DNA of 64,000 bases from Escherichia phage UGJNEcP3. The notes beneath the pieces were generated by a model. That model was not told where the DNA came from. It saw nothing but the letters and a program-made list of their open reading frames with translations, and made no database searches. Shown here piece after piece: positions 51,351 through 57,845 of the stretch. Made by a program: the position numbers and the translations under genes. The stretch's first letter is position 1, and every line of letters starts with the position of its first letter. The stretch lies in sequence record OV876907, one strand, 5' to 3'.

Positions 51351-51579
51351 CGTCTCGTTCCCATGATTGTTTAAAGATATCTCGTATAATAATTTCAACA
51401 CATGTTTCTGTTGACGGGCTTTCACTATCAGATATTTGGACCATATAATCAGAAATAGGTCGGAACATATCCAAGTCACTTTCTAAATCTTCTTTGATTT
51501 TCTCTTCTGATGTTCCGGTGTCATAGGAATACAGATAAGAATCACATGACTCAGATTTAATATAAATTGCAATACTCAT
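51343..51579 (-). CDS. hypothetical acidic protein (78 aa)
   Basis: ORF; RBS embedded in upstream gene tail. Confidence 0.4.
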   Translation of the reverse strand: MSIAIYIKSESCDSYLYSYDTGTSEEKIKEDLESDLDMFRPISDYMVQISDSESPSTETCVEIIIRDIFKQSWERDDE

Positions 51580-52163
51580 TTACGGCATTCCTTAATAAAA
51601 GAGTTTAATGTATTTTTCTTAGTGATATCGTCATATACCTTTTTAACTTTAGAAATACGAAAAGGTACTTCGATAACAGAGGTCCATAAAAATGATGCGA
51701 TAAGACCTAAGATAGCAGCAGACATCGCTGAAGCGAATACACAAATAGGCAGGTCATTATCTGTTGTCAGGAAAAACCCTAGGAGTGGGAAAAATAATAT
51801 ACCCATCCAAACATAGAATCTAGAACTCACCAATTTGTCGTATTCATCACTCCATGCACGGAAGCCGTATTTTTTGCTATAACAAATCAATGGGTCTGGA
51901 GTCTGTTCTTTATGTGGTTCCGCTTGCCAGCCGTTTACGATATAGCCCATTTTATATTCCTCAATTAAAAGCTGTTTCATTTCGGCAGTACAACCTGACC
52001 AATCTATTGTACTGGCTGAAATTCCTTCATCGCCGTCATCGATATTTCGCCAGGACTTTTTAATAATCATAGTCTCACCACTTGGGATAATAATTCCAGC
52101 ATTTTCCGACCGACGGATGAAGTTTGTGTCAATACCCATACAACCGGGTTCATAAAGGGCCAT
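51576..52163 (-). CDS. membrane protein (195 aa)
   Basis: hydrophobic segments; C-terminal FIKECRK overlaps downstream RBS. Confidence 0.45.
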   Translation of the reverse strand: MALYEPGCMGIDTNFIRRSENAGIIIPSGETMIIKKSWRNIDDGDEGISASTIDWSGCTAEMKQLLIEEYKMGYIVNGWQAEPHKEQTPDPLICYSKKYGFRAWSDEYDKLVSSRFYVWMGILFFPLLGFFLTTDNDLPICVFASAMSAAILGLIASFLWTSVIEVPFRISKVKKVYDDITKKNTLNSFIKECRK

Positions 52164-52852
52164 TACCAGCCCTCCATAGGGAATTCCAGATATACTTGAG
52201 CATTAACGCGGATTTCATTTGTAATCTTTTTAACACGGTCTGTATTACGAGACACACGACCAAACCAGCGCCACCCGTTACTTACTGCACGAGAACCTGT
52301 ATGCCATGTCTGCCAATCAAACTGGAGCAACGTGCGGTCAGGAGCATCCCACTTGGTTAATTCATTGGACTCAATTTTTTCCAGAACTTCTTTATGCCAC
52401 TGGCGATAGATAAGTTCGCCTTCAGGAATCTGACTAAATTGAGCAGTTCCGGTTGCAAAATGAGTAGGACACACATCAGCGTTAACAAGACCAAGAATAT
52501 GTTCAGAATGGTATCGAGGATTATCATAATCAGGTTGCCCTGCGGTAATAAAGTGTTGACCCACCGGAATATCCGGGCGTGGTACATCATCATGGTGGAA
52601 GCCTGGAATTGCAGGGTACCAGCCAGGCATTAACATATGTACACGGGAATCAAATACAATATCAGGGCCACATTGCCAATCTTCAGGCAGGTTTTCAATA
52701 AAGCTACGAGTAATAGGACCGCCGTGTTTATGAGCAAAATAAGCATCGCAATTAAAGAACATAGGCTCATTTTTAATCATATCATTATTGATATCTTGAG
52801 CAAAACCACCGACTGCACGAGCTTGAGAATTAAAAGTTTTCGGGCCGTTCAT
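52163..52852 (-). CDS. hypothetical protein (229 aa), His/Asp-rich
   Basis: ORF; HHDD...H cluster could be a metal site (speculative). Confidence 0.45.
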   Translation of the reverse strand: MNGPKTFNSQARAVGGFAQDINNDMIKNEPMFFNCDAYFAHKHGGPITRSFIENLPEDWQCGPDIVFDSRVHMLMPGWYPAIPGFHHDDVPRPDIPVGQHFITAGQPDYDNPRYHSEHILGLVNADVCPTHFATGTAQFSQIPEGELIYRQWHKEVLEKIESNELTKWDAPDRTLLQFDWQTWHTGSRAVSNGWRWFGRVSRNTDRVKKITNEIRVNAQVYLEFPMEGW

Positions 52853-52866
52853 AATATTTTCCTCAA

Positions 52867-53079
52867 TTACTTTTTGTTGAAAAAGTACATTTTACCTTTA
52901 GGAGATAAGGATACACGAAGTGCGTTACCAATACCAACTGAACATTTAACCAGGTCAGCAGATTTCAATTCACCAAATGCTTGACGAAGGTCACCGTCAC
53001 GAGTGTTAACCATCAGACATTTAGCACCAGCTGCACGAACTTCGTTTAACATGTTGATTGCTTGGTTAGAAAGTTTCAT
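52867..53079 (-). CDS. hypothetical protein (70 aa from second ATG)
   Basis: ATGGAGAATAAAATG leader; promoter module 53117-53145 upstream. Confidence 0.4.
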   Translation of the reverse strand: MKLSNQAINMLNEVRAAGAKCLMVNTRDGDLRQAFGELKSADLVKCSVGIGNALRVSLSPKGKMYFFNKK

Positions 53080-53157
53080 TTTATTCTCCATTTCACTCTG
53101 TTGTTTTGATAGGTCTATAGTATCACACCTATAGACCTTGTATACTGTTTTATGCAA

Positions 53158-54117
53158 TTATTTTTCGAAAGGACGAATTAAATGATGGTTATCTTGGAAC
53201 CGCTTGATGTAGTCATTTTCACCTAGGGTCTTATACATGTTCACTACCGAGTTATAATTCTCGTATGCGTATTCGCGGAACCAACCTGAAGTGATTGAGG
53301 TGCACACTTTCTCAAGAGCCATATAGAAACTTAATGACGGCGAAATATTAAAGTCATTAGGAACCTGTGAACGTTCTAGTGCCAGGACACAAGTTTCTTC
53401 ATACACACCGGCCAATTTAATAGCTTCAGGCAAAGCTTCAAACTTCTCACGAGAGGTCATGACTTCAGAACCATCCTTCATATAAAAGGTATATGCAGGG
53501 CGCCCTGCCAATGCTACTGCTTCGTGGATGGAGTCATGGTCCAGCGTATAAATGGTATCATTAAAGAATGATGATTTGTTAACGTCTAATTTAGGGTGAG
53601 AATAGCTCAACGTTTCTTTTTGACGTTGCAACATAATTTCCTGGAGTTCTTCGTTCAGGGTCACGCCTTTATTACGAAGGTATTTGATGTGGGACATAGT
53701 TTTCAAGAAGAACGGATTATTCTTAAGGAAACGATGAGAGGTTTTGATAGCCAGACAGATATCAGGGGTTGCCCAATAGAAACCTGTAAGACGGTCCTTT
53801 TTAATATGATTTTCAGCATATTTCAGGAGACGATAGCTTGAGGTGTAGTCTTCATCTTGGAGCTCACCGGTAATTTCTCGTACATTAGTCAGGGCACGGA
53901 CGATATAAGCTTCGAAATAGGTTTCTTTACCATTATGCATACATTTGAAAGCCTGAACATCAGGATTGTCAACGTGTACATGGGCGCCGAACATCCGAGC
54001 TTTAAAGTGGTTCCATGAGCCTTGGTCGGCAATGAAATCCCAATCAGAATTTTCGATATACTTATTTTCAATCAGACCTGCGTGGTGCAGTGCACGAGAA
54101 CCAATAACTAGCATCAT
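53158..54117 (-). CDS. hypothetical protein (319 aa from internal ATG)
   Basis: ATG 54117 with SD GAGGAAAA; track start further upstream. Confidence 0.45.
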   Translation of the reverse strand: MMLVIGSRALHHAGLIENKYIENSDWDFIADQGSWNHFKARMFGAHVHVDNPDVQAFKCMHNGKETYFEAYIVRALTNVREITGELQDEDYTSSYRLLKYAENHIKKDRLTGFYWATPDICLAIKTSHRFLKNNPFFLKTMSHIKYLRNKGVTLNEELQEIMLQRQKETLSYSHPKLDVNKSSFFNDTIYTLDHDSIHEAVALAGRPAYTFYMKDGSEVMTSREKFEALPEAIKLAGVYEETCVLALERSQVPNDFNISPSLSFYMALEKVCTSITSGWFREYAYENYNSVVNMYKTLGENDYIKRFQDNHHLIRPFEK

Positions 54118-54136: not shown

Positions 54137-54376
54137 TTAAATTTCGGCAACGTAAGTATTATGTAATTCCCACATATCATTGGAATTACTCTCAACGATA
54201 GGAATTATCTCATTAGAGATTTCTTCTGCATAAGGGTCATTGATACAGTGAGCATCTTCAAAACGAACACCGTAATCAGACTTCTTATAAGAGAAGCCAT
54301 AAATCTTTTTAAACTTGGCACGAGTAATGCGTACCGGTTCATTAGACTTATCGGACATCGGGGCGTAATACCACAT
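54137..54376 (-). CDS. hypothetical protein (79 aa)
   Basis: SD GAGGAG. Confidence 0.4.
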   Translation of the reverse strand: MWYYAPMSDKSNEPVRITRAKFKKIYGFSYKKSDYGVRFEDAHCINDPYAEEISNEIIPIVESNSNDMWELHNTYVAEI

Positions 54377-54419
54377 ATGTACTCCTCATGTTTGTGTAAG
54401 GTAATAGTAACACGTATTT

Positions 54420-54770
54420 TTAGAGTTGTACATCACTTCTGCAATATTCTAAAAATAATTTATCGTTGTCTACTGTATCCCAACGACGCCAAGATGGATT
54501 CCAGACCAGAGCGTTGTCACCACAATCATTGAGCTTAAAATGGTCGTAGTACATAGCTATATGTCTAGTTTCGTCACCAGAGAACCCCAGTATAGGCTCA
54601 CCATGGGTGTGATACATATGATGGTGCATTGAGAGGTCGCATTTGTAAAACATCTCACGTTTACCACGAACGAACAAGAAGGCCTGTCCATTCATATAGA
54701 ATTCTTTATTTGTTTTCAAAAGATATTTGAATACTGAATCTTTATGCATAAGTCCTCCTACCACATCCAT
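54420..54770 (-). CDS. hypothetical protein (116 aa)
   Basis: ORF. Confidence 0.4.
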   Translation of the reverse strand: MDVVGGLMHKDSVFKYLLKTNKEFYMNGQAFLFVRGKREMFYKCDLSMHHHMYHTHGEPILGFSGDETRHIAMYYDHFKLNDCGDNALVWNPSWRRWDTVDNDKLFLEYCRSDVQL

Positions 54771-54779
54771 GTGGTTAAA

Positions 54780-55007
54780 TTATTTTCCTAACGAAACACG
54801 AGTAGGTTTTTTACCAAAATAGTCTTCGTAAGAACCATCTAAACGGCCTGCTTTAGACCGACAATACGAATCATACTTTTTGTAATAAGTCATCTCGGTA
54901 TTATAACGTGGGTGTCTATCAGCCATAATAATACTTAGTGGCCAACCTTTGGCATAATCGCGAAGACCATTTATTTTACGAATGTATCGTTTTTTCAATT
55001 TTAGCAT
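54780..55007 (-). CDS. hypothetical protein (75 aa)
   Basis: ORF. Confidence 0.4.
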   Translation of the reverse strand: MLKLKKRYIRKINGLRDYAKGWPLSIIMADRHPRYNTEMTYYKKYDSYCRSKAGRLDGSYEDYFGKKPTRVSLGK

Positions 55008-55225
55008 GAGCTTGGGTACCAGATTTTACCATCGGCCTGAGCAACGAAGGTGCGACCAGCTTCTTCACCATAACAAGAGCTATTCAGCCAATCTTCGAGA
55101 CGAACTTCACCGTCATAATCATCGAGCTCAACACCGAAATCCTGGGCAGAAGCCATATCTTTTACTTTCTTATACAGTGCAGCCAGTTCAAGAGCAGCTT
55201 TTTCTAATTCATTAATATCAGACAT
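55001..55225 (-). CDS. small protein, C-terminal tail family member 5 (...WYPSSC)
   Basis: ATG 55225 with SD AAGGAA; tail related to W-x-S-S-x-x-C family. Confidence 0.4.
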   Translation of the reverse strand: MSDINELEKAALELAALYKKVKDMASAQDFGVELDDYDGEVRLEDWLNSSCYGEEAGRTFVAQADGKIWYPSSC

Positions 55226-55235
55226 TTTTATTTCC

Positions 55236-55448
55236 TTAGCAAGACATAGAAGAAGTAAACCAGAAACCATCACCATCAGGAATGCCGTAATCATCACGGA
55301 CCCATTCGTAATCATCATATTCCGGGTTCTTTGGAGAAATGTATTGTCCACGACCAGAAACATGGAACTCTTCACCTGTTTCGTCAGCCACGGACTGGCC
55401 TTTACGTACTAATTCACGGATTTGTTTTTCAATTTCATCAATAGTCAT
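55236..55448 (-). CDS. small protein, C-terminal tail family member 4 (...WFTSSMSC)
   Basis: tandem paralog array. Confidence 0.45.
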   Translation of the reverse strand: MTIDEIEKQIRELVRKGQSVADETGEEFHVSGRGQYISPKNPEYDDYEWVRDDYGIPDGDGFWFTSSMSC

Positions 55449-55457
55449 TTTATTACC

Positions 55458-55655
55458 TTAGCATTCGTAAGAGGAGGACACCCAAGAGGTACCACTAATA
55501 GTAATACAACCGTTATAAAGCGTGATATGTCGTTCTAGGTCACGAACACCATCGATATAGATATCAGCTTCTTCGCGTTCTTCTTTACAAATCTGGATAA
55601 CGTTTTCAATAGCTGCGGCTGCAGTACGGATTGCACAATCTAGTTCACGAGACAT
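55458..55655 (-). CDS. small protein, C-terminal tail family member 3 (...WVSSSYEC)
   Basis: tandem paralog array. Confidence 0.45.
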   Translation of the reverse strand: MSRELDCAIRTAAAAIENVIQICKEEREEADIYIDGVRDLERHITLYNGCITISGTSWVSSSYEC

Positions 55656-55664
55656 AATAATTCC

Positions 55665-55946
55665 TTAACATTCAGAAGAAGAGGATACCCATCCACCATT
55701 TTCTAGGCTGGTAGTGTAATCATGTTGGTTTACAATAGCGTACTGAGCTTCACCGTATTCTTCCCAGTGGGCAAGGTCGGCTTTCAGGGCGCCAGGAGAA
55801 TAATAGTCACCGCCCATACCGCGAGCAGGGTATATATTAAAATGAGTCTCATATTTGTTAGCAATTTCCTCAGCACGACGAATAGCTTTATGAATATCAT
55901 TTACTGCTTCAGCCAGCTCTTTATTTTTACGGTAATCATTCATCAT
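55665..55946 (-). CDS. small protein, C-terminal tail family member 2 (...WVSSSSEC)
   Basis: tandem paralog array. Confidence 0.45.
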   Translation of the reverse strand: MMNDYRKNKELAEAVNDIHKAIRRAEEIANKYETHFNIYPARGMGGDYYSPGALKADLAHWEEYGEAQYAIVNQHDYTTSLENGGWVSSSSEC

Positions 55947-55955
55947 AGAATTTCC

Positions 55956-56246
55956 TTAGCACATTGCTGAAGAGGAGACCCAAGCACCAACTGTAACGAC
56001 ACCGTTTTCAACTTCACCGCCATTGTTTTCAATTTCATCTTTAAACCACTGGGAGCATTCATAACCGACAGGATAATATGTACGGCCTGAACCATAATCA
56101 CCGGTACCGAATTGAATACCGTACTTATCGGCAATAGCTTCGCATTCATGTTCGATGGTATCTACTTTATTCAGAAGAGCATAGATAGCCTTTTCTGCAG
56201 ACAGCGCGCTGTTGTATTCAGGGATTTCAATTTCAATTTTATTCAT
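55956..56246 (-). CDS. small protein, C-terminal tail family member 1 (...WVSSSAMC)
   Basis: tandem paralog array. Confidence 0.45.
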   Translation of the reverse strand: MNKIEIEIPEYNSALSAEKAIYALLNKVDTIEHECEAIADKYGIQFGTGDYGSGRTYYPVGYECSQWFKDEIENNGGEVENGVVTVGAWVSSSAMC

Positions 56247-56596
56247 GATTTACATTCCTTAATAAAGGTTTCAAGGTCATTACGTTTAGTTTGTTTTACA
56301 TACTCATTATAATTAGCCATAGCTAAAGCATATCTCTTTTTACGTGGCTTGTTTATTTTATTAGTTTGGGCAATATCAAAGACCCATGGGATAAAAAATC
56401 CTATTAAAGCCGGAACCCAAATCCACGCGAGGCTCATATCTTCAAACGGATGGCGAGGCATACCATTAATAATCCCACCGACAAGAAATCCAATTATCCC
56501 TGCAGTCATACTAGTAGCAATGCCGAGGAATAATGAAATAGAGATATCGTAATCTGCTAATGCGTAACCAGGGTCGGTTTTACTAGGCTTATGCAT
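56243..56596 (-). CDS. membrane protein (117 aa from internal ATG)
   Basis: hydrophobic core; ATG 56596 with SD AGAGG. Confidence 0.4.
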   Translation of the reverse strand: MHKPSKTDPGYALADYDISISLFLGIATSMTAGIIGFLVGGIINGMPRHPFEDMSLAWIWVPALIGFFIPWVFDIAQTNKINKPRKKRYALAMANYNEYVKQTKRNDLETFIKECKS

Positions 56597-57125
56597 TTTG
56601 AACCTCTTTAGCGTATTCGCGACATTCAGCAATAAAACGATTAAGCTTACGTTGTTGTTTACGACTTTCTAATGTGTACTCATTAGACAAAATAATAAGC
56701 TCATCTTTATCGTAATTTTTAATATCAGAGTAAGATGGGCGACGGTCAACCATTCCAAATACATCACCATTTTCTAAAGCTACATAGCATACTAAATGGT
56801 AATCATCGTCTGCCATATTAAGAAGCACACAATCAGCGCTCTCGTTTAAAGAATATACTGAATAACGTAGTCCAGCGAATTCCACTCGTTGAATAGCCAG
56901 ATTTACGTCAATAATTTCCAAAGCATCTTCAAAAGAAAGGTCTTCAGCTAAAGCAAAAATAAAAGGTAATTTGGTAGTATCGCCACGGCTAGATGTTCTG
57001 CTTAAGAAATCGTTTGAATAGCCTAGGTCTTGGCGAATTCTATAAAGAACTGAATTGGTTTCATGGGAAAGACCACTATTTTTAAACCAATCAATATTTG
57101 ATATCAGGTCGTCATATAAACTCAT
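56589..57125 (-). CDS. hypothetical protein (178 aa)
   Basis: ORF. Confidence 0.45.
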   Translation of the reverse strand: MSLYDDLISNIDWFKNSGLSHETNSVLYRIRQDLGYSNDFLSRTSSRGDTTKLPFIFALAEDLSFEDALEIIDVNLAIQRVEFAGLRYSVYSLNESADCVLLNMADDDYHLVCYVALENGDVFGMVDRRPSYSDIKNYDKDELIILSNEYTLESRKQQRKLNRFIAECREYAKEVQNA

Positions 57126-57173
57126 AATATTCTCCTCTCCTCCAAATAGGGAGACCGAAGTCTCCCGGTAACA

Positions 57174-57767
57174 TTACTTAAGTGAATTAATGTAGTCTTC
57201 GATATCAGCAGAAGTCGTATCCATTCCAACTTGCGGGCCTTTAAACGTTTCTACGCGCATCAGGGTGTCTTCGATATCAATCTTGGTCAGTGCAGCAATT
57301 TCAACAACATCGTCGGCAGTAGCAATACCAAGGGCAGCCATATTACGAGTTTCACGAATGTACTCAAGCTTAACCGCTAGTTCCTGGCGAGAGTCATCAA
57401 GTTCCTTGACCTTAAGCTTAATTTCATTACGCATTTCAACATAATCATCGGCTTTCTTACGAAGTTGAGTAGCCGTACGACGATAAAGGAGGCCGAGTTT
57501 AGCATGTACCTGGACATCGGCACCTTCTTTAATCAGTTTACGAATTTCGCGTTCTTTGGAACTAGCCAGTTGGTCCTTTTCGTTAGCGAGTTCACGAATA
57601 CGTTTTTCTTCATTCACAGACTTAACATGGGCAGTCTGGAGCTCAGTGATTTTATCAATCAAGGTAGAAGCAGCTTTAGTATACTGGTCTTCAATTGACA
57701 GGTTCTGAGCCATTGCGGTACCCAGTTTAGAACGAATGAATTCAACGAGTTTCTTTAAAGTGTTCAT
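57174..57767 (-). CDS. coiled-coil protein (197 aa), possibly PspA/IM30-like
   Basis: heptad-rich, charge-alternating sequence; family assignment speculative. Confidence 0.4.
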
Positions 57768-57845
57768 AGTATTTCCTTCAGTTGGTTAACGTTTTGTAAT
57801 CCATGAGGACATTATACCCTGTCCTCTGAGGGTTGTAAACATTTT

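Follow-up and report, generated by a model that had tools for sequence, protein, structure and literature searches.

The window analysed here, a 64,000-nucleotide stretch of Escherichia phage UGJNEcP3 (OV876907), carries on its minus strand an array of five consecutive genes (55001-56246) encoding small proteins of 65-96 amino acids that all end in the same tail, W-x-x-S-S-(x-x)-C directly before the stop codon. Downstream on the same strand lies a gene for a predicted nucleotidyltransferase. The five genes had been singled out in a preliminary description of this DNA, and we find their open reading frames (ORFs) exactly where it placed them; the shared ending is, as it held, no frame artefact, each ORF having its own Shine-Dalgarno sequence and its own ATG, preceded by TAAGGA-type spacing. 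The most telling feature of the locus, the linked enzyme, escaped that description. The six genes are:

55956..56246, minus strand: copy 1, a small acidic protein of 96 amino acids with an N-terminal helix, a DYGSGRTYYP motif and the end ...GAWVSSSAMC, matching phrog_899 over its full length (E 5.6e-23).
55665..55946, minus strand: copy 2, a 93-amino-acid paralog with the canonical RGMGGDYYSP motif and the end ...GGWVSSSSEC (phrog_899, E 2.6e-20).
55458..55655, minus strand: copy 3, 65 amino acids with a different body (phrog_4882, E 2.4e-36) and the end ...TSWVSSSYEC.
55236..55448, minus strand: copy 4, a 70-amino-acid paralog (phrog_899, E 1.1e-13) ending in ...GFWFTSSMSC.
55001..55225, minus strand: copy 5, a 74-amino-acid paralog (phrog_899, E 4.3e-10) with the short tail ...KIWYPSSC and an internal copy of the motif, DWLNSSCYGEE.
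53158..54117, minus strand: predicted nucleotidyltransferase of 319 amino acids, with Pfam DUF7277 at the N-terminus and DUF7275, a large helical domain, at the C-terminus.

Of the 388 ORFs of 40 amino acids or more in a six-frame regular-expression scan of the window, only the five of the array bear the tail. The strict motif occurs once among 5040 control ORFs of 80 related loci, and five in a row are therefore far beyond chance. Codons differ between the copies, and across 134 distinct tail DNA sequences all six serine codons (TCN and AGY boxes) are in use at the two invariant serines, together with both cysteine codons and all three stop codons. Because all six serine codons occur at these positions, selection acts on the peptide, which bears out the earlier claim of selection on the protein and not on an RNA signal. 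The array junctions have the form TG[CT]-TAA-GG[AT]-AAT-nnn-ATG, in which the stop codon opens the ribosome-binding site of the next gene, and the ATG of the 75-amino-acid ORF that follows (start 55007) overlaps the last cysteine codon of copy 5; this layout suggests translational coupling along the gene string. An RNA-level cause of the conserved ending, with the stop codon doubling as part of a Shine-Dalgarno sequence, was rejected on the strength of the six serine, two cysteine and three stop codons all being used. A signal for lipidation, secretion or capsid targeting was rejected on general grounds, these proteins having no N-terminal signal or hydrophobic segment.

The five bodies turn out to be less disparate than first described. 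Copies 1, 2, 4 and 5 are full-length homologs within phrog_899, and the claim of an unrelated N-terminal body stands for copy 3, of which only the last 14 columns align with the main family in a profile-profile comparison (hhalign). When all five are aligned, identity to copy 1 is 22-39%, the common features being a helix, then ...AD..G..F, a glycine-rich motif, a tryptophan and G-x-W-x-S-S. A central [YF]-G-x-G-[GA] motif reads YGSGRTYYP in copy 1 and RGMGGDYYSP in copy 2, is degenerate in copy 4 (GRGQYISP) and is absent from copies 3 and 5. Copy 2 has an ortholog in phage RB69 (ORF137c, 55% identity), and the two-motif architecture of copy 5 recurs in Aeromonas phage 25 (ORF058c), in ESCO13 and in locus L035.

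The copy number of the array is polymorphic. Copy 3 is absent from Bp7 and QL01 (L010), leaving QL01 with four tail genes instead of five; by megablast, WG01, MX01, QL01 and further Dhakavirus genomes match over 91% of the query in two separate pieces, consistent with a deletion of copy 3. In the RB69 reference, the copy-1 ortholog is split into ORF139c and ORF138c (71 and 33 amino acids; L004:3989-4295), with the tail WVSSPALC, and close relatives of RB69 have an intact ortholog of 101 amino acids ending in WVSSSALC (P0024); the split reflects either a frameshift in a pseudogene or a mistake in sequencing.

An exhaustive profile search of 1.84 billion representative proteins (threshold E<=0.001) assigns these proteins to a family of 325 representative clusters of small acidic proteins. 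Among the matches listed (150), all are small except one spurious entry of 1309 amino acids, and the match reaches the last residue in nearly all. We examined 146 divergent representatives: the tail stands at the C-terminal end in 137, the tryptophan lies exactly seven residues before the end in 135, and the central motif, typically YGMGGTYYP, is present in 111. Their median isoelectric point is 4.5, and in 88 the terminal cysteine is the only one. In 35 of the 146, W-x-S-S is present two or three times, the extra copies being internal W-x-S-S-x-C(-Y-G-E) units inside acidic linkers. The tail is also found on about ten other body clusters, a minority of the tail-bearing proteins.

The five copies match nothing in Pfam, NCBIfam or PADLOC, 112 family members match nothing in Pfam, and a sequence profile search of the PDB returned no relative, only designed helical bundles that match the N-terminal helix. 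Literature on the family, on DUF7277/DUF7275 or on their pairing was not found, in searches whose coverage is incomplete, so that a description elsewhere is possible. The earlier assertion that no equivalent has been described thus holds as far as could be searched.

Outside the T4-like family, Pseudomonas phage PN09 (Otagovirus) has five consecutive ORFs of 86-146 amino acids upstream of the enzyme (L006:3736-5547, PN09_139 to _143). Four bear tails of varying quality (...DWDSSSMYC, ...DWTYSSQDC, ...GWNASSQSC and ...KWMRSNHDC), and the remaining one is degenerate, with the end ...YGWNV after an internal WEASGGCEWEE; this array suggests ongoing birth and decay of copies.

An AlphaFold model of copy 1 (pLDDT 89, pTM 0.76) consists of a helix (14-42) followed by a small beta-sheet. 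Residues A88-S91 are placed in a beta-strand that pairs with the preceding hairpin, as might be expected if the tail were simply the closing strand of a small fold, its tryptophan in the core and its serine and cysteine residues as a cap, kept for stability. Full-length homology of four of the five window copies points the same way, common ancestry being enough to explain a common ending. We nevertheless find this account quite improbable, because the same ending stands on bodies with no other detectable similarity, because it also occurs as internal repeats in acidic linkers, and because the exact C-terminus and the position of the tryptophan are kept in all but a few representatives. The last six residues are, moreover, the least confident part of the model. 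Being portable to other bodies, repeated in linkers, fixed at the exact C-terminus and modelled with lower confidence, the tail suggests a short motif shown to a partner and not a piece of the fold; the internal repeats are easier to reconcile with a docking or acceptor motif than with an element of the fold.

The evidence for a partner lies in gene linkage. From the stop of copy 5 (55001) to the start of the enzyme gene (54117) there is 0.9 kilobases (kb) on the same strand, within the limit of about 2.6 kb applied to other genomes. Eighty IMG/VR loci were fetched by the enzyme only, and 75 of them have one to five tail ORFs on the same strand at most 2.6 kb upstream. Counted by bin over these 80 loci, tail ORFs account for 212 of 898 ORFs in the 2.6 kb upstream, 6 of 883 at greater upstream distance, 0 of 1690 inside the enzyme gene or downstream of it, and 1 of 3350 on the opposite strand. 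A reverse test used a degenerate DNA pattern for YGMGGTY, which is independent of both tail and enzyme, and gave 73 matches, 43 in family members and 30 by chance. All 23 family members that are followed by 3 kb or more of sequence have the enzyme, as do 33 of the 43 overall, and the ten that do not all have less than 1 kb of downstream sequence; the 30 chance matches are all without it. Sorting the 80 loci by enzyme identity (70% or more) gives 27 clades, across which the tail family alone recurs widely, its main cluster being present in 21 clades and the next best gene in 6.

Tail genes and enzyme stay together in different genome neighbourhoods and in different virus families. An enzyme of about 300-320 amino acids follows the tail genes in RB69 (ORF134c), phiE142 and Pseudomonas phage PN09; in Aeromonas phage 25 it lies beside nrdD (ORF057c), a different neighbourhood in which the pairing is kept, and the pairing is also found in ESCO13 (Phapecoctavirus) and Acinetobacter phage Lazarus. 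Both families are absent from phage T4 (positions 1-168,200), with no hidden Markov model match at E<=1. Because the gene linkage is this strong, we treat array and enzyme as one module, a conclusion we hold with high confidence. The two can be separate in some genomes: IMG/VR loci L071-L073 and L082 have no tail ORF upstream of the enzyme, and the sole tail ORF of L082 (...AWCSSSMEC) lies 6 kb off on the opposite strand.

Among 50,697 deposited phage genomes the enzyme occurs in 734, and its protein clusters number about 2,000. Its carriers include T4-like, rV5-like and jumbo phages, with Escherichia, Klebsiella, Acinetobacter, Pseudomonas and Aeromonas among their hosts. RB69 and JS98 carry the module and T4 is without it, which may be why it has escaped genetic study.

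An AlphaFold model of the enzyme built on an alignment of 34 homologs (pLDDT 91.1, pTM 0.84) has a Pol-beta-type nucleotidyltransferase fold that resembles the solved MenT structures and is MenT/ANT-like. A catalytic signature, G6-S7, D25-x-D27 and E69, is invariant, as are many residues of the DUF7275 helical domain, including YDHDSIH and KVCTSITSGWFRE. Since the fold is predicted with the G-S...D-x-D...E signature intact, the 319-amino-acid protein is very probably an active nucleotidyltransferase. No sequence-level match to characterised families was found: none of the 34 homologs matches the AbiEii/DUF1814 Pfam profile at E<=1, the only Pfam families matched being DUF7275 and DUF7277, and PADLOC returned nothing.

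We considered and rejected an RlaP-like maker of cyclic dinucleotides. The reported motif, GS-x-AY[GAN]T-x4-SDxD, is not present, the N-terminal motif of the enzyme, GSRALHHAGLIENKYIENSDWD, having no AY[GAN]T and running from GSRA through 14 residues to SDWD; nor is there a match to PF10127 (RlaP) or any similarity to T4 NrdC.11 by BLASTP. T4 NrdC.11 itself (L169:7436-8446) does match PF10127, and its N-terminus, FGSHLYGTSTPESDVDF, fits the reported cyclic-dinucleotide catalytic motif. T4 nrdC.3 and nrdC.4, which resemble the Aeromonas phage 25 enzyme in size and position, were set aside because they are not homologs.

Cys272 of the enzyme is kept in five aligned tail-linked homologs and in two without a nearby tail gene (Moby, L071), and position 272 is isoleucine in a distant tail-less branch (Vibrio phage ValKK3, Streptomyces phage Annadreamy and Gordonia phage WilliamBoone). 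This pattern is one small hint of direct interplay between enzyme and tail. In the same three phages (L163:3205-3498, L164:4130-4822 and L165:4091-4378, respectively), the distant enzyme is flanked by a different small acidic family with the common sequence ...[FY]xKTGYY[DN]SWD...VEV.P, possibly a partner of another kind.

The region is 100% identical to that of Escherichia phage UGJNEcP4 (Dhakavirus; T4-like, JS98 group) and 91-98% identical to that of many relatives. Homologs of T4 e.3 (56243-56596) and e.2 (51576-52163) enclose the stretch that holds the minus-strand array. In T4 itself e.2 abuts e.3 with nothing in between; RB69 has an inserted block like that of the window. Other features of the block and its surroundings are:

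56243..56596, minus strand: T4 e.3 homolog, a membrane protein of 117 amino acids, which bounds the inserted block on its upstream side and overlaps, with its end, the start of copy 1.
54137..55007, minus strand: three small ORFs (75, 109 and 79 amino acids) between array and enzyme, in a tightly packed gene string.
57811..57839, minus strand: best sigma-70-like promoter match (TTTACA-17-TATAAT), upstream of the gene string; a consensus match only, such matches being no more frequent in the region than in shuffled sequence.

On the minus strand, no terminator-like site was found between the promoter match and the enzyme gene. Among the three intervening ORFs only the 79-amino-acid one has an RB69 counterpart (ORF135c), and none travels with the enzyme across clades, so that they are probably not core parts of the module. 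Two genes past the enzyme, an ORF of 229 amino acids (52163-52852) is 87% identical to RB69 ORF132c and holds PGFHHDDVPRPD and WHTGSR, reminiscent of the H-x-D...H metal site of cupin/2-oxoglutarate oxygenases. It has no Pfam match, and its travel with the enzyme is confined to close relatives; it was discarded as a core part because it does not accompany the enzyme across clades. Searched against Pfam, the ten flanking proteins (51576-54117, 54137-55007, 56243-57767) gave only DUF7275/DUF7277, on the enzyme.

We favour, at somewhat short of an even chance, a reading in which the small acidic proteins work with the downstream nucleotidyltransferase and the tail is an acceptor site, with a nucleoside monophosphate (NMP) placed on an invariant serine or on the cysteine. 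The tail is probably what the enzyme grips or modifies. The data show the tail with its conservation as protein, the family, the linkage of the genes and a nucleotidyltransferase fold whose catalytic motif is intact. What we infer is a contact between tail and enzyme, its chemistry and a biological purpose: the tail, W-x-x-S-S-(x-x)-C-COOH, would face the downstream enzyme, which would load NMP onto either invariant serine, or possibly onto the terminal cysteine, and the small proteins would be its substrates or carriers. NMP transfer is the simplest chemistry because a nucleotidyltransferase is the only constant partner. The purpose of the module is presumably host takeover or counter-defence, given its place in the variable early-gene region and its presence or absence as a whole. 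The idea, raised in the preliminary description, that the tail is a tag for targeting, modification or partner binding fits the conserved ends, the internal repeats, the other bodies and the linked enzyme, the tag function being deduced from these features. Transfers of this kind have precedents: the nucleotidyltransferase MntA adenylylates its partner HepT, and with CitX and MdcG a serine on a small acidic carrier protein receives a nucleotide-derived group. MenT-type enzymes are reported to be capable of phosphate transfer to a serine of their own active site (PMC11375011). Only tentatively do we extend this to a phage protein-tagging system, in which the enzyme would nucleotidylate the serine or cysteine of the tag, or prime a short polynucleotide on it, and the conjugates would help to take over the host or to counter its defences.

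Several observations weigh against an acceptor tail. Three unrelated ORFs separate array and enzyme in the window, and 5 of the 80 enzyme loci have no nearby tail ORF. No W-x-x-S-S-C proteins are encoded near the shorter, distant homologs of the enzyme (251-259 amino acids, 26-35% identity) that Vibrio, Streptomyces and Gordonia phages carry. W89 of copy 1 is modelled in the last beta-strand, so the motif may be partly structural. The nearest structural relatives of the enzyme, MenT1, MenT3 and MenT4, act on tRNA 3' ends and not on proteins (PMC10435456).

An RNA-directed enzyme, acting for example on tRNA 3' ends, is what the main rival proposes: the small proteins would be antitoxin-like regulators or specificity adaptors that bind the enzyme, their tail plugging the active site or docking there, and so turn it off or redirect it. 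The analogy is with MenAT1, in which MenT1 is bound and thereby blocked by a helical protein of 68 amino acids from the gene just upstream (PMC10435456). A simple inhibitor would not be expected to come in as many as five or six different forms per enzyme, or with repeated motifs, and this makes the rival a less good fit; no sequence or fold similarity between the small proteins and MenA1, and no similarity to any PDB chain, was found, and in virulent phages a self-poisoning pair is without obvious use. We rate it as rather doubtful.

It is unlikely, in our estimate, that the tail acts elsewhere, on a host protein, a metal or as a redox or sulfur-carrying cysteine, next to an enzyme that is merely co-regulated and may make nucleotide signals. 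The sulfur carriers SoxY and DsrC use C-terminal cysteine arms, a parallel that gains from the terminal cysteine being the only one in most representatives (88 of 146). Phage nucleotidyltransferases from a different family make competitor cyclic dinucleotides against TIR-STING immunity (bioRxiv 10.1101/2022.06.09.495361). Co-regulation would leave unexplained, however, the near-obligate adjacency in a fixed order across unrelated genomic settings and virus families and the joint absence from T4, and the enzyme fails the motif of the cyclic-dinucleotide family and has no similarity to T4 NrdC.11.

The tandem arrangement of substrate-like genes beside one enzyme also recalls the precursor arrays of ribosomally synthesized and post-translationally modified peptides (RiPPs). 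The tail serine could be nucleotidylated and eliminated to dehydroalanine, on which the terminal cysteine would close a lanthionine-type ring; the long tail has a serine 3-4 residues before the cysteine, the typical spacing of lanthionine rings. The short tail, W-x-x-S-S-C, puts serine only 1-2 residues before the cysteine, however, the proteins, to judge by the confident globular model of copy 1, are folded domains of 65-96 amino acids and not leader-core peptides, and no dehydratase, cyclase, protease or exporter lies nearby, all of which makes such a pathway very improbable.

Taken as one unit, the enzyme and the tail proteins offer a first way into the function of two Pfam DUFs and two PHROGs, and turn a conserved tail into a biochemical question: does the enzyme label the tails, and with what? 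Should the tail be a nucleotidylation tag, it would represent a new kind of protein modification in phage infection; should the small proteins be regulators, the module would be a phage-borne relative of MenAT with an unusual multi-partner design.

Known systems share individual traits with the module. The type VII system HepT-MntA is like the proposed mechanism in that a Pol-beta-fold enzyme uses the protein encoded next to it as substrate, the acceptor there being a tyrosine in a HEPN RNase, whereas the candidates here are the serines and cysteine of a C-terminal tail; neither HEPN nor any other Pfam domain was found in the five copies and 112 family members. In citrate lyase and malonate decarboxylase, CitX and MdcG place a nucleotide-derived group through a phosphodiester on a serine of an acidic carrier of about 100 amino acids, again as proposed here. 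Those systems require the donor synthase CitG or MdcB and belong to metabolic operons, whereas here no such linked gene and no sequence similarity was found. RiPP arrays, such as the one in which many ProcA precursors are served by one ProcM, likewise consist of tandem paralogous small genes with a common Ser/Cys stretch next to one enzyme. RiPPs have a conserved leader, a variable core and short products, whereas the module conserves the extreme C-terminus of a folded domain, and no dehydratase or cyclase of the LanB/C/M/KC/L families was found among the ten flanking proteins, nor does any other gene travel with the enzyme.

The phage cyclic-dinucleotide enzymes of BCP1 and Av05, in the family of T4 NrdC.11/RlaP, likewise belong to the Pol-beta superfamily and lie in accessory or anti-defence regions (bioRxiv 10.1101/2022.06.09.495361); tail-bearing partners are not reported for that family, and the window enzyme has them. 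MenAT1, in which MenT1 is paired with the 68-amino-acid MenA1, belongs to the chromosome of M. tuberculosis and not to a virulent phage (PMC10435456). MenT1 has T39-x-D41 where the window enzyme has a canonical D-x-D, and the latter, at 319 amino acids, carries the extra helical DUF7275 and has no AbiEii/DUF1814 match. The small proteins differ from MenA1 in their predicted alpha+beta fold, their occurrence in arrays of as many as five or six, and their invariant C-terminal motif. By sequence and motif tests the module is thus distinct from MenT/AbiEii, MenA1, RlaP-type enzymes, HepT-MntA, CitX with its acyl carrier protein and RiPPs, and its parts resemble known kinds, a Pol-beta-fold enzyme and a small partner encoded upstream.

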